From a virus (lineage: Duplodnaviria; Heunggongvirae; Uroviricota; Caudoviricetes): 44,178 bases of DNA. The stretch lies in the IMG/VR virus record IMGVR_UViG_3300045988_014135; one strand, written 5' to 3'. Numbering within the stretch: position 1 is the first letter of the stretch; every line of letters starts with the position of its first letter. The notes under the pieces are model-generated. The model saw only the letters and a list, made by a program, of their open reading frames with translations. It did not search any database and had not been told where the DNA came from. Made by a program: the position numbers and the translations under genes. Positions 14,364-24,613 of the stretch are shown here, piece after piece.

Positions 14364-14537
14364 ATTTTATTGGTGTTTTAAAGATAATCGTTCACTGCGA
14401 ATCCAGTAGTACCTCGGGCGTCGTACCCACTGACGCCATCGCATAACACGGTACTTGTTGCCGTCTGACGCAACAATAAGCCCGAATCGCTTTTCTCCGT
14501 TTCTACCGGTCCAGGTTACGATGTCATTCAGTTTCAT
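14364..14537 (-). CDS. small hypothetical protein
   Basis: 57-aa ORF MKLNDIVTWTG... with AGGAG RBS. Confidence 0.35.
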
Positions 14538-14589
14538 TGTTGCATCTCCTGCAATAGTCGCTTCGATTGTTGCGTTTGGTGAAATAGAA

Positions 14590-14628
14590 CAAAAATGAGA
14601 AAAATGATACGCTGCTGTGTAGCAGCGT
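14590..14628 (-). terminator. intrinsic terminator
   Basis: Stem ACGCTGCT/AGCAGCGT, loop GTGT, followed on minus strand by a U-rich tract. Confidence 0.6.
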
Positions 14629-14651
14629 AAGTCACTCAGTAAAATCCCAAA

Positions 14652-14849
14652 CTATTGACCTGTTACACCACCTGTTACACCACCTGTTACACCACCTGTT
14701 ACACCACCTGTTACACCAGCACGGTATTGCACACCAGCTTTCCACGCCCGCCACGCGAGACGCGTCTTAACGTTCAGGTACCCTTTCTTTGAACCTTTGT
14801 TAACCGGCAGACCCTCGACTACAGCCCACCGTTCAAATGCTTCTCTCAT
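14652..14849 (-). CDS. small protein with C-terminal (GVTG)5 repeat
   Basis: 65 aa; C-terminus encoded by five perfect 12-bp tandem repeats. Confidence 0.45.
   Translation of the reverse strand: MREAFERWAVVEGLPVNKGSKKGYLNVKTRLAWRAWKAGVQYRAGVTGGVTGGVTGGVTGGVTGQ
14659..14718. repeat. tandem repeat, 12 bp x 5 perfect copies (CCTGTTACACCA)
   Basis: Counted directly; in-frame within ORF 14652..14849. Confidence 0.95.
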
Positions 14850-14852
14850 AAC

Positions 14853-15044
14853 TTAGTCCTCATCATCTTCTAAGTCAGGGTACACTATGAAATCTCCAGG
14901 CCTTTGCAACTCAGCGCCAGCCATAAAATAACCAAGTGCTTCGGCCCTTTCGGAATCTGTTTTAAACTCAGACAAAGGGTATCTTTCATAGAACTTGTTA
15001 ATTAATAACGCCTGGTCAAACTTAGTCGCATCGTAACCGCTCAT
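14853..15044 (-). CDS. small hypothetical protein
   Basis: 63-aa ORF in coupled array. Confidence 0.45.
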   Translation of the reverse strand: MSGYDATKFDQALLINKFYERYPLSEFKTDSERAEALGYFMAGAELQRPGDFIVYPDLEDDED

Positions 15045-15934: not shown

Positions 15935-16167
15935 GAGATTAGTTACGTTGCCGTTGTGATTCTTTAGGGAAGGTTGTGCCTTTATTCTTATTACTTGGTA
16001 ACTAAAGGGCAGGCCTTAAGCCTGCCCAATAATCGTTACATTTTTACGGTTGCGAATCTACGGCACATTAAGAAACAGTAGATATTTCAGCGGGTTACTT
16101 CTTTAAATGAGATTTAGATACACTTATCCTTAAACCCCAAGGCAAGCATCTCAGTTGTCTGGGAGGG

Positions 16168-16199: not shown

Positions 16200-16292
16200 T
16201 CCGTAATATATACAAGTCCCAAAACCATTATACAAACATGTGTCAAGAACTTTCAATAACTTTTTTGTAAAGATTAAATATAGCAGGGATTG

Positions 16293-16353: not shown

Positions 16354-16536
16354 ATGCAACATTACATGACCCAGAATGAAGTAGCTGAGCGTATTGGGGT
16401 GACACGCCAGACAATTAATAACTGGTTGCGCAGTGGTAAATTCCCTGACTGCTGTATTAAAGTTATGGGTCGCCGTTTACCAGGAACATTTGACCGTAAT
16501 AAAGTTGAAGCGTGGATTAAGGAGAATGTGAAATGA
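16354..16536 (+). CDS. AlpA/Xis-like HTH DNA-binding protein
   Basis: MTQNEVAERIGVTRQTINNWLRSGKFP...RNKVEAWI pattern; start at ATG 16354 after AGGAG. Confidence 0.6.
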   Translation: MQHYMTQNEVAERIGVTRQTINNWLRSGKFPDCCIKVMGRRLPGTFDRNKVEAWIKENVK

Positions 16537-16892: not shown

Positions 16893-17021
16893 ATGACGAA
16901 GTTAATAGTTCCACAGTTGCGCCGCCAGAAACACGGCGCTGATTTCTTCGCACCGGTAAAGATGAACCGCGCAATGCGTCGTATGCAGGAAGCCTTAGAA
17001 CGCGCGGAGAAAAAGAAATGA
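16893..17021 (+). CDS. small hypothetical protein
   Basis: 42 aa from internal ATG 16893; stop overlaps primase start. Confidence 0.35.
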   Translation: MTKLIVPQLRRQKHGADFFAPVKMNRAMRRMQEALERAEKKK

Positions 17022-19225
17022 ATATTGTTTTTGCAACGCTGCGTAACACTTTCGATAAAAACCCGGTAGCCCGTGAAATGCCACTGGAGCAGTTTGTAGA
17101 GTATGTCTGCGATACATCGAAGCGCCTGTCCGTAGACCCGTCATGGACTAAGGAAGAGTACGACGCGGCCAAGATTAAGCAGAAAGCTATTGCGCCGGTT
17201 GGCGGTCGCCGTAAGAACGCGATTCTGGAAGACAGTGTGGTTAAGTTCGATTTCGACCATCTAAACCGTACCCAGTACCGCGACCTCACCCGCAAATTCA
17301 AGAACGCGCCGTTCTTCAATATTCTGCACACAACGGCGTCGCACCAGCACGCGTGTAAAAACGGTGACTACGCTTTCCGCGTTCTTGTACCGGCCCGCAC
17401 GCCGTTTAACTCTAACGACGCGTGGATGGTGCAACGTGCTATTTGTGCTGAGTTAGAAATAGACGAAGCATTGCGCGACCACTGCACAGAAGATGGCAAC
17501 CGCCTTATCTACCTGCCGCATAAAGAGTCGAAGATAACGGTTACAGAAGGGCGTGTTATCCGTGCCGAGCGGTACATCAAGAAAGCCGAAGAAATGGGGT
17601 TGCGTAAGCGTGAAGCTAAGACCCTTGCTGCCGATGAGCATGGGCTTAACGCGGATATAGCGCATTTCTGCGAAGCGGAGCTTGGCCTTGACGCTTTATC
17701 TTCCGGTCGCGGGTACGAAGTGCCTTGCCCTAACGAACACCTGCACACCGGCAAAGGCTCCACCAGCATCATGCTCGACGGTAAAGAAGTGCGCTTCGTG
17801 TGCCAGCACACAAACAACGGTGCTTGCACTGAGCTTAACCGCCGACAACATTTGGCCCTGCGTATGTGCGGCCTTCCGGACGAGCTTAACGTAGACAAGC
17901 AACCTATCAGTATTAACAGCATTCGTGCGGCTCTGCCTGATTTACCGGATGAAGAGATTGAAGAACTGCACCGCACAGAGAACGAGGAGCCTGTAACTTG
18001 TACACTGGAAGACCTTGAAGACGATGACGAGTTACCTGAACCGGTAAAGGCTGATTTCGTCGTTGAAGGGTACATGCCGTCGGATTGCATCTGGGACATC
18101 GTCGGGGAATCCGGCACATATAAATCATTCTATACGCTGGGTATGATGTACCTGAGCGCCGCAGGGTACCGGTTTGCAGGCGCTGATACACAGCGTTGCC
18201 ACCATTTCTATATTGACGGTGAGGGCGGTGCTGCCACACGCACCCGTATTGATGCACTCGCGGCTAAATACGGCGAGGAAGGTAAAGATTATGTACATGT
18301 CATCGATATGGGCGAAGTTGGCAAACTGAAAAGCCTGATTAAGCTAATGCGAGAAACTGCGGGTGGCGAACCCATCGGCATGGTCGCGTTCGATACTCTC
18401 AACCAGACACTGGCCCTGACGATTGATAAGTTCGACGAGAACAGTTCATCAACGGCAATCGGCATGGGTAAAGTTATCGCCATCCTTAAAGAAGTACGTG
18501 ACGCAACTAAAGCCGCGGTGGGCGTCGTCCACCATACACCGAAGGGCGGAAAGAAAGCCCGTGGCAGCGGGGCGCTGTATGCGGGTGTCGATGTGGAACT
18601 GACAATAGAACGTGCAACCGACCGTCAGATAAACGTATACCACTCGAAATTTAAGCACGGGCCTCAACAGAAAACGGTTGGCATGGTGCTGGAGTCCGTA
18701 CAGTTCCGTGAAGCGCCGCCGCCGAAAGAGTACCGCGCGGTTGAGTTCCTGGGCAGCACAGAGGAATACGGCACAATCGTAAACCTCGACCTGCCGGAAC
18801 CACACAAGGCGCTTGTTCTGATGCCGTGGGGCTTCGAGCCGTTCAAAACTGACGAGGAGAAAGAGCGGGAAGAAGGGTTAACTAACGAAGGTAAACAAAA
18901 AGTAAAGGAAGAAGTTAAACGCGGCAGGGATGAAGTAAGGAAGGAGTCGATACTTTCGGCACTGGAAGACCTGCAACAGTCAGATGACACAGGTCGCGGT
19001 TTTACTCAGCAGCAGATAGTGGCCCGTTCCGGTGACTTTTCTGTGACTAACACCCATCTTGATAAAATGCTGAAAGATGGTGAACTAATGCTAGGCTGTG
19101 ATGCTAATGGCGAAGTAGTACCGAGAACGTATCGTATACCTGAAAGAATAGGGGATAGATTAAGGCCGAAGACAATATACGAACCGAATGAAATGCTAGT
19201 GGTTACTGAGGAAGATTTGGAATAG
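17018..19225 (+). CDS. replication primase/helicase (N-terminal primase-like region, C-terminal P-loop/RecA-like NTPase)
   Basis: 735 aa; NTPase block VGESGTYKSF...FYIDGEGG...MVAFDTLNQ...VVHHTPKGG resembles RepA/AAA_25-type helicases; first large gene of the replication module. Confidence 0.55.
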   Translation: MNIVFATLRNTFDKNPVAREMPLEQFVEYVCDTSKRLSVDPSWTKEEYDAAKIKQKAIAPVGGRRKNAILEDSVVKFDFDHLNRTQYRDLTRKFKNAPFFNILHTTASHQHACKNGDYAFRVLVPARTPFNSNDAWMVQRAICAELEIDEALRDHCTEDGNRLIYLPHKESKITVTEGRVIRAERYIKKAEEMGLRKREAKTLAADEHGLNADIAHFCEAELGLDALSSGRGYEVPCPNEHLHTGKGSTSIMLDGKEVRFVCQHTNNGACTELNRRQHLALRMCGLPDELNVDKQPISINSIRAALPDLPDEEIEELHRTENEEPVTCTLEDLEDDDELPEPVKADFVVEGYMPSDCIWDIVGESGTYKSFYTLGMMYLSAAGYRFAGADTQRCHHFYIDGEGGAATRTRIDALAAKYGEEGKDYVHVIDMGEVGKLKSLIKLMRETAGGEPIGMVAFDTLNQTLALTIDKFDENSSSTAIGMGKVIAILKEVRDATKAAVGVVHHTPKGGKKARGSGALYAGVDVELTIERATDRQINVYHSKFKHGPQQKTVGMVLESVQFREAPPPKEYRAVEFLGSTEEYGTIVNLDLPEPHKALVLMPWGFEPFKTDEEKEREEGLTNEGKQKVKEEVKRGRDEVRKESILSALEDLQQSDDTGRGFTQQQIVARSGDFSVTNTHLDKMLKDGELMLGCDANGEVVPRTYRIPERIGDRLRPKTIYEPNEMLVVTEEDLE

Positions 19226-22414: not shown

Positions 22415-24613
22415 ATGCCTAATCTATTGTATCTGGATACTGAGACATTCTCTGAAGCGGACTTAAAGAAAGTCGGATCGTATGCGTACGCGGAGCATCC
22501 GACAACCGAGATTATAATTTGTACATATGCCATTGATGATGGGCCCGTAGAAGTATGGGATTGCACTTCCGAACCGGTAATGCCAATAAGCCTCCGCATT
22601 GCGCTGCGCAATGTTATGCGCGGACGTATGAGAATTGTAGGTCATAACTTTTTAATGTTCGACAGGCTTGTTATGAAGCACTGCTGGGGCGTTGATATCA
22701 AGCCAAGAAACACCATTGACACGATGATTAGAGCGTTTCGTCACGCGTTGCCGGGTTCACTTGACGCATTGTGCGAAGTGCTGGGCGTATCTGCGGACAA
22801 CGCGAAAGACAAACGCGGTAAAGCACTGATTCAGCGTTTTTCTAAACCGACGCCGAAGAACTACAAAATCCGCCGTTACACCGCCGAAACTCACCCAGAT
22901 GAGTGGGCGCTGTTCATCAAGTACGCCGTGAGCGACATCACTGCGATGCGTGAAGTCTTCCATAAGCTGCCGCGTTGGGGTAACTCCGAGTTCGAAGACC
23001 GTGTACTGGAACTTGACCAGTTAATCAACGACCGCGGGTTTAAGGTTGATGTGGCGCTGGCGGAAGCTGCGATTGAGGCCGTAGAGAAACACAAGGCGCA
23101 GTTGCAGGAAGAAGCCCAACGCAAATACGGCGGCTCGCTAACTGGCAAAGACTTTCTACCTATTCTGCGGGAACTGGCCCCCGCGCACCGTATTCATAAC
23201 GCGCAGAAGTCGACACTCAATGACCTGCTGGCGGATGATGATTTGCCAGATGACGCCCGCACGATTATCGAAATGCGCCTCGGGGCCGCGTCTACAGCAT
23301 CGACGAAATATAACCCGCTGCTGCTGGGTCGCTCGTCGGACGACCGTCGTCGCGGTTGCTTGCAGTACGGCGGGGCAAAACGCACTTTGCGATGGGCGGG
23401 TAAAGGCTTCCAGCCGCAGAACCTGGCGCGCGGGTACTATCACGATGATGAACTGGATAAAGGCATTTCAGCGTTACTTAAGGGCCGTGCGCATCGCCGT
23501 TTTGATGTGGCCAAGCTAACGGCATCTACGGTTCGTAGCTGCATTATCCCGGAAGCCGGGCATAAGTTTGTCGTCGCCGATTACTCTAACGTTGAGGGTC
23601 GTGGGCTTGCGTGGCTGGCGGGCGAAGAAACCGCGCTCGATACGTTCCGCGCCGGACTGGATATTTACTGCGTAACCGCGGGCAAGATGTTTGGTATGGA
23701 CCCTGATGACATTAAGAAAAACTTCAAGGAAATCAGACAGATAGGCAAAGCATGCGAACTGGGTCTCGGCTACGAGGGCGGCGTCGGAGCGTTCGTTACG
23801 TTCGCCAAAAACTTAGGCCTCGACCTTATTGAGATGGCAAAAACAATGGACGGGACTTTCCCCGACCACATCTGGGCTGCTACCGCACGTGGGTATGAGT
23901 GGGCGCGTATTCAGGAAGCCAAGCGACCACCGCATCCCGGTGAAAAGGATGACCGACCATCATATATTCTGGACAAGAAAGTGTGGCGCACATGTGATGC
24001 AATCAAGCGTATGTGGCGCGAGTCACACCCGGAAACAGTAGCGTTCTGGCGCGACCTTAAAGATGGAATTTTAGCCGCTGTTCGTAATCCTGGTCGTGAA
24101 TTTTGGGCCGGGGCACACTTGCGCCGGAATGGTGAAAGGGCTATCCGCATATGGCGTACCGTAGAATTTGATTCGTCGGGCAGGAAGGTTCCTGGCTGGT
24201 GGTTGTGTATGGAGTTGCCGTCAGGCCGTATCCTCTCGTATCCGGGAATCGGCGTTAGTGTGACAAAGGAAACAGACGAAGACGGACGGGTAAACACGAA
24301 TGTGCGAATCAAGTATCAGGGTGAAAACCAGTTAACCCGCCAATGGACTACCCTGTACACCCACGGCGGCAAAGCCTGCGAAAACATTGTTCAGGCGCTG
24401 TGCCGTGATTTACTCGCATATGCGATGATTAATGTTGAGGGTGGCGGGTATCCCATCGTGCTTTCGGTACACGATGAACTGGTGTGTGAAACTCCGGATA
24501 CCCCAGAGTACACGGTGGCCGAACTGGAAAAATTAATGTGTTCTCTGCCTGAGTGGGCAGAAGGCTTCCCTCTTGTCGCGGAAGGTGCGGAGATGAAGCG
24601 CTATGCTAAGTAA
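22415..24613 (+). CDS. DNA polymerase I (family A) with 3'-5' exonuclease domain
   Basis: Exo motif LYLDTETFSE; polymerase motif A DYSNVEGRGLAWLAGE, motif B RQIGKACELGLGYEGG, motif C VHDELV. Confidence 0.85.
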   Translation: MPNLLYLDTETFSEADLKKVGSYAYAEHPTTEIIICTYAIDDGPVEVWDCTSEPVMPISLRIALRNVMRGRMRIVGHNFLMFDRLVMKHCWGVDIKPRNTIDTMIRAFRHALPGSLDALCEVLGVSADNAKDKRGKALIQRFSKPTPKNYKIRRYTAETHPDEWALFIKYAVSDITAMREVFHKLPRWGNSEFEDRVLELDQLINDRGFKVDVALAEAAIEAVEKHKAQLQEEAQRKYGGSLTGKDFLPILRELAPAHRIHNAQKSTLNDLLADDDLPDDARTIIEMRLGAASTASTKYNPLLLGRSSDDRRRGCLQYGGAKRTLRWAGKGFQPQNLARGYYHDDELDKGISALLKGRAHRRFDVAKLTASTVRSCIIPEAGHKFVVADYSNVEGRGLAWLAGEETALDTFRAGLDIYCVTAGKMFGMDPDDIKKNFKEIRQIGKACELGLGYEGGVGAFVTFAKNLGLDLIEMAKTMDGTFPDHIWAATARGYEWARIQEAKRPPHPGEKDDRPSYILDKKVWRTCDAIKRMWRESHPETVAFWRDLKDGILAAVRNPGREFWAGAHLRRNGERAIRIWRTVEFDSSGRKVPGWWLCMELPSGRILSYPGIGVSVTKETDEDGRVNTNVRIKYQGENQLTRQWTTLYTHGGKACENIVQALCRDLLAYAMINVEGGGYPIVLSVHDELVCETPDTPEYTVAELEKLMCSLPEWAEGFPLVAEGAEMKRYAK

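Follow-up and report, generated by a model that had tools for sequence, protein, structure and literature searches.

A five-unit, in-frame 12-nt tandem repeat at the 3' end of a small Kagunavirus gene, probably grown by slippage in a copy-number-variable tract

The stretch of viral DNA analysed here (the window, 44,178 nt in its full length) is from a Kagunavirus, a K1G/K1ind-like Escherichia siphophage of the Guernseyvirinae. The gene carrying the repeat encodes a protein of 65 aa and lies within a leftward run of small ORFs without assigned function that diverges from the replication genes; the immediate features are collected in Table 1. In the replication block PHROG profiles identify a helicase-primase (17018-19225), an exonuclease, a DNA polymerase and a helicase, and the array sits about 2.3 kb away from the helicase-primase gene. 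The small-gene operon is headed by a sigma-70-like promoter at 16256..16227 (minus strand), which is near-consensus (TTGAAA-18-TATAAT, 11/12 positions), and from its position downstream of this promoter early expression of the 65-aa ORF is plausible. A strong terminator-like hairpin (16007-16027, minus strand, with a 9-bp stem containing 7 GC pairs) is found about 200 nt past the promoter, and the two together could be a leader or attenuator arrangement. Two further observations concern the replication genes themselves. The helicase-primase gene is mosaic: 23 of the 117 matching phage records align over the full length, and because the others match only from about nt 1002 onward, its N-terminal half comes in differing versions. 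The DNA polymerase ORF (22415-24613, 732 aa) has an additional match to a PHROG 'endonuclease' family at residues 444-537, which may represent an inserted nuclease-like segment.

Table 1. Features at and around the repeat-bearing gene (positions are those of the window).
Feature	Position	Strand	Basis
Downstream neighbour gene past the terminator, 56 aa, phrog_9384 (unknown-function family)	14367..14537	-	ORF list, PHROG
Intrinsic-terminator-like hairpin, TACGCTGCT-ACAC-AGCAGCGTA, then TCATTTTTCT	14598..14629	-	terminator scan
65-aa ORF: ~40-aa two-helix core, QYRA linker, (GVTG)5, Q, stop	14652..14849	-	ORF list, translation
Tandem array, 5.1 perfect 12-nt copies, read as (GVTG)5	14658..14718	-	TRF, sequence, exact matches
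74-nt segment in place of the 245-nt DUF551-containing segment of fPoEco01, both borders sharp	14658..14731	-	blastn
Upstream neighbour gene, 63 aa, phrog_27229 (unknown-function family)	14853..15044	-	ORF list, PHROG
Shine-Dalgarno-like GAGGA, 7 nt before ATG, within the end of the upstream gene	14857..14861	-	read from sequence

Tandem Repeats Finder (TRF) detects at the 3' end of this gene 5.1 head-to-tail copies of a 12-nt unit with 100% matches, no indels and a score of 122. This is the sole array of such quality in the window, as the other four TRF rows have 2.1-2.5 copies and scores of 30-37. In gene orientation the unit is GGTGTAACAGGT (ACCTGTTACACC on the plus strand), with GGT at both its start and its finish, and in the register CCTGTTACACCA x5 the array occupies 14659-14718, with exact matches starting at 14659, 14671, 14683, 14695 and 14707. 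Five identical tandem 12-mers cannot have arisen by chance. Outside the array, the 12-mer is matched nowhere in the window at 0 or 1 mismatch and three times at 2 mismatches, against 2.9 expected by chance. The sequence-only reading had described five perfect 12-bp repeats that encode a (GVTG)5 C-terminal tail just upstream of a terminator, and all of this is borne out: the register is exact, translation of the ORF gives the tail and the hairpin follows about 22 nt past the stop codon.

The encoded protein can be written as MREAFERWAVVEGLPVNKGSKKGYLNVKTRLAWRAWKAGVQYRA-(GVTG)5-Q, with the C-terminal end ...YRAGVTGGVTGGVTGGVTGGVTGQ and a tail of A(GVTG)5Q. Residues 1-42, the core, align to positions 1-42 of the 47 in the profile of phrog_15836 (E=1.6e-31), a family of unknown function, and homologues of the core, which form 63 homologous protein clusters, bear a precomputed PF26207 tag. 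The local Pfam profiles, a set that does not include the PF26207 model, gave no match for the core protein, and a sequence search of the PDB with it returned nothing significant (best E=0.83). Variable sites in the core are distributed over the three codon positions as 10/11/28 and codon differences are mostly silent (248 synonymous vs 70 nonsynonymous), so that the ~40-aa core is under purifying selection. An AF2 model contains helices at residues 2-12 and 27-47 with pLDDT 65-80, a two-helix hairpin of moderate confidence, while the (GVTG)5 tail has pLDDT <50 and is predicted to be disordered. Genes of the phrog_15836 / PF26207 and DUF551 (PF04448) families occur together in Kagunavirus and related Guernseyvirinae, with gene order, RBS and terminator alike in about 140 phage records, and in both Snoke and Schulenburg an RBS is annotated at the place equivalent to the GAGGA of the window. 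The usual protein of this family is 47 aa long, with ...VMNTR or a similar C-terminus, and its gene precedes that of DUF551, whereas the window has no DUF551 and its core gene continues into the repeat tract. Other architectures exist among the homologous clusters: in P0001 and P0002 the whole ~40-aa core is present twice in tandem within one protein, and P0025, P0027, P0032 and P0038 are in-frame fusions of the core with DUF551, a hint that the two small genes are functionally linked.

The hairpin proper runs from 14629 to 14608 on the minus strand and consists of a 9-bp stem with 5 GC pairs, a 4-nt ACAC loop and a T-run. A GC-rich stem-loop followed by a T-run is the make-up of an intrinsic terminator, the stem forms with a probability of 0.92 in the folded RNA and termination is predicted; the annotations of Snoke and Schulenburg list the equivalent hairpin as a terminator. 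It is kept in 46/47 of the loci described below. In Schulenburg, Ec1-ASingh and one IMG/VR contig (L002, L003 and L048) the loop reads GTGT instead of ACAC on the same stem, a loop flip at a palindrome. Could the number of units, then, tune read-through into the downstream genes, with the repeat RNA acting on the terminator? The complement of the unit matches the 5' arm and loop of the terminator at 8/9 positions, a level reached by 2.3% of scrambled units, and in RNA folds with 0-8 units the terminator-stem probability dropped in some sequence contexts from 0.97 to 0.25-0.65 at three or more units. However, this apparent anti-terminator effect of at least three units is gone when the natural alleles are folded in a uniform 150-nt context, in which the window (0.92) and a 6-unit allele (0.97) have the stem probabilities seen with 0-2 units, and we reject it as an artefact of sequence boundaries. 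The overall RNA fold is also no more stable than that of shuffled sequences (z = +0.5), and in the window the array is translated by ribosomes. A role of the repeat RNA in read-through is, in our opinion, very unlikely.

Orthologous loci from phages in GenBank, from IMG/VR and from a single metagenome scan gave 47 distinct modules spanning from the core gene to the terminator, in which the unit is present 0, 1, 2, 3, 5 or 6 times. A search for the repeat itself brought in some of these loci, and high copy numbers are thus too frequent among the 47; among loci found through the protein only, fused alleles have 1-2 units and one locus has 6 units. Most modules (37/47) contain a core gene of ~47 aa with a short tail of its own (ending in ...VMNTR, ...VANPR, ...IERGVRYG or ...AFEKRGDL), then the DUF551 gene and then the terminator. 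These DUF551-bearing modules have no unit in 26 cases, where DUF551 ends in ...GAAGTGTGATGTTCAATAG, one unit in four, two in five, three in one and six in one. The three-unit case is Shigella phage phiSD1, with GGTGTAATAGGT as its third unit, and the six perfect units belong to IMGVR_UViG_3300010278_000001 (= Ga0129311_1000339). At all unit-bearing DUF551 loci the DUF551 frame ends in ...PPSLV or similar at a TAA inside unit 1, which is precisely where the annotated CDS of phiSD1 ends. Because the stop codon of DUF551 is this TAA within the first unit, the array behind DUF551 is 3' untranslated sequence.

The remaining 10/47 modules, including the window, lack DUF551, and the core continues via (Q/L)(Y/F/A)RA into the tract, which is read in the GVTG frame. 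Such fused alleles have one unit in ZCEC5 and L019, two in Snoke, Schulenburg, Ec1-ASingh, L010, L016 and L018, three in L054 (ERZ1034842 NODE-100) and five in the window only. They end in ...GVTGQ or, where TAG became AAG, in QKVTN, and their frame is kept at any copy number of the 12-nt unit. At the protein level, GVTG tails in the 63 homologous clusters and their listed members have 1-2 units, and only P0001 (...GVTGGVTGGATGQ) has three. Cluster members of 57 aa, which were candidates for 3-unit alleles, turned out to be 2-unit alleles extended by the TAG-to-AAG read-through, and the exact 65-aa protein has no record among 153 billion gene positions. Exact 24-mer matches in the giant-virus MAG contig L007 and in L006, L008, L009, L011 and L015 were rejected as homologues. 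Their ORFs are unrelated viral ones with long (GVTG)n/(GTTG)n stretches of up to dozens of units that use the same GGTGTAACAGGT codons, and the codon likeness of these sequences to the array is a coincidence.

How did the core come to be joined to the tract? In a blastn comparison with fPoEco01 the window is 100% identical over 14536-14657 and 98.4% identical over 14732-15036, with no alignment in between. The 74 nt enclosed are unrelated to the counterpart segment of fPoEco01 (L005 1559-1803, 245 nt with DUF551). Fused alleles read ...CAATAC/CGT-GCTGGTGTAACAGG and the DUF551 3' end reads ...CCACCGTCGCTGGTGTAACAGG, and the comparison suggests loss or exchange of the DUF551 cassette, after which the core would have run on into what had been the 3' end of DUF551, in a frame untranslated until then. 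The (GVTG)n peptide would in that case be a by-product of this event. Loss of DUF551, as opposed to its insertion, is the direction that we infer for the event. The putative deletion junction requires a ~210-nt loss plus a 1-nt difference and, because of this additional difference, the history may be one of cassette exchange instead of simple deletion.

We consider it very probable that the array is a slippage-generated, in-frame, length-variable repeat in a dispensable accessory gene and that it expanded recently; it is probably close to neutral. The repeat is polymorphic in copy number, stands in translated as well as untranslated contexts and is absent from close relatives; slippage as the mechanism and the neutrality of the tail we infer. 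The flanks of the window are 98-100% identical to those of a 0-unit phage while copy number differs. Slipped-strand mispairing and unequal recombination are the established dynamics of tandem repeats, and either of them, acting during phage DNA replication, could have produced a small variable-number tandem repeat here. The founding unit GGTGTAACAGGT would have lain, as in most unit-bearing Kagunaviruses, at the very end of the DUF551 gene before the conserved terminator, and the GGT at both unit ends may have been the seed for the first 12-nt duplication. In one lineage, which includes the window, the DUF551 segment would then have been lost or swapped, so that the core came to read the tract in another frame, in which the unit encodes Gly-Val-Thr-Gly. 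From there on the gain or loss of 12 nt would never break the frame and would do no more than lengthen or shorten a flexible C-terminal tail, which the protein, a dispensable accessory one, most likely tolerates as a near-neutral addition. Growth to five identical units in the window would be recent, with no time yet for substitutions.

Several properties of the alleles fit with this proposal. All copies are identical in the five- and six-unit arrays, whereas substitutions are found in 5/11 of the 2-unit arrays and 1/2 of the 3-unit arrays (substituted units GGTATGACAGGT, GGTATAACAGGT, GGCGTAACAGGT and GGTGTAATAGGT), as expected if the shorter arrays are older and the large ones recent. The spacers downstream of the array differ between the window (TCAATAGTTTGGG...) and the 6-unit allele (TCAAAAGGTTACT...), and because of this difference we read the expansions to five (translated) and six (untranslated) units as two independent events. 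A point on the other side is that alleles of one and two units are widespread, some with substitutions; because they are common and old, the tract is not hypermutable at low copy and is no more than mildly unstable until several copies are present. Since arrays of two, three and six units persist untranslated, the capacity to expand resides in the DNA tract, and the GVTG peptide is not required for it. The sequence-only reading had proposed recent slippage with a length-variable protein, to be checked by comparing copy number across related phages and to be given up if all relatives had the same copy number along with synonymous variation inside the repeats. The comparison supports the proposal, as orthologous loci carry 0, 1, 2, 3, 5 or 6 units between conserved flanks and copy number is not uniform.

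Other small in-frame duplications are found at the 3' end of the same gene. The core gene tail of L051 (IMGVR_UViG_3300045988_011391) contains GTGTTGTCTGTT x2, encoding VLSVVLSV, a duplication independent of the GVTG units, and P0013 and P0045 have WKAGVQYKS x2 and RAW x2, respectively. The 3' part of the core gene therefore seems to be generally tolerant of duplications. An assembly or sequencing artefact as the source of the five copies is an explanation that we can practically discount: the exact five-unit allele is unique to the window, but the array is 61 nt long, below ordinary read length, and the same sequence recurs in the same place in independent assemblies, with 2, 3 and 6 units.

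What is the role of the tail, if any? A longer (GVTG)n tail could be adaptive as a flexible linker or spacer that tunes the activity of the core or its binding to a partner, with five units selected in the host of this phage. The array is in frame and translated in the lineage of the window, tails of one to three units are retained across many relatives, and the existence of core-DUF551 fusion proteins indicates that the C-terminus of the core tolerates appendages and may use them. Two independent growths of the array, to 5 and 6 units, among a limited number of loci could hint that longer arrays bring some advantage. However, in an untranslated setting the same tract has grown to six perfect units, the five-unit state is confined to a single genome and AF2 predicts the tail to be disordered. 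The tails of the core are otherwise unrelated to each other (VMNTR, VANPR, IERGVRYG, AFEKRGDL and others), which points to little constraint. Selection on the peptide thus appears improbable to us, and near-neutral growth by slippage remains the preferred explanation.

It had also been suggested, from the sequence of the window alone, that DNA-level selection maintains the units as iteron-like sites, to which a replication or partition protein of the phage, or an HTH regulator, would bind. The array does consist of perfect direct repeats in the early region, not far from the helicase-primase gene, and it persists where untranslated, so it is not kept for its peptide. However, a search allowing up to 2 mismatches found no further copy of the unit in the genome beyond chance, 26/47 distinct loci are without a unit and 6/47 have one. 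LF7074P1 and fBC-Eco01, the closest relatives by the helicase-primase gene (98.8% and 95.7% identical, respectively), possess DUF551 and zero units, and fBC-Eco01 lacks units even though its HTH gene/promoter region is 97.4% identical to that of the window, where the HTH gene lies at about 16354-16536. With a GC content of 0.46-0.48 the site of the array is not AT-rich; GC is lowest (0.39-0.43), and GC skew turns, at 15.6-16.9 kb, 1-2 kb off. Typical iterons are ~17-22 bp long and spaced, unlike the contiguous 12-nt units found here. The lambda O gene, which holds four origin iteron repeats, offers a parallel, with direct repeats in a coding region in the early part of a siphophage genome. Still, origin iterons of this kind are longer, spaced, placed beside an AT-rich region and conserved with the initiator, whereas the window has contiguous 12-mers in a region that is not AT-rich, and relatives that share its replication genes lack the units. 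We therefore reject membership of the array in the iteron/origin class, as it is not conserved together with the helicase-primase and has no AT-rich region alongside; the suggestion of iteron-like selection is unsupported and, as an explanation of the array, highly improbable.

The array fits instead with coding VNTRs, the minisatellite-type repeats produced by slipped-strand mispairing in bacterial and phage genes. The array has the near-identical units, polymorphic copy number and unit length in multiples of three of a slippage-type coding VNTR, and it shares with this class perfect units, a kept frame, copy-number differences among close relatives with conserved flanks and homogeneity of the longest arrays. 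The difference is in the setting, as coding VNTRs are typically found in surface or host-range proteins, while the array of the window is in a 65-aa phage accessory protein and is non-coding in sister phages. Phase-variable contingency loci are alike in having a slippage-prone repeat inside a gene. These, however, switch frame, and because the 12-nt unit keeps the frame there can be no on/off switching in the window. We found no paper on tandem repeats in Kagunavirus, and a general search gave only SSR surveys of other phages. The array adds one more example to a familiar class of sequence: it is a variable repeat of an ordinary type rather than a site for replication or regulation.

The finding has little consequence for biology at large. 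Two more consequential roles can be imagined, namely that the unit number tunes terminator read-through or that the tract is a preferred recombination joint for swaps of DUF551 cassettes in Kagunavirus early operons, and we regard either as quite improbable. If the tract were such a joint, the independent 5- and 6-unit expansions would mark a recombination hotspot. For annotation, the GVTG tail and the array should not be taken for a functional motif or an origin. The array could be useful for typing strains of Kagunavirus, a group from which several phages are in use as therapeutic or K1-specific phages. The locus offers a clean, small example of how non-coding or out-of-frame 3' DNA would become a coding tail after the loss of a cassette and then grow by slippage.
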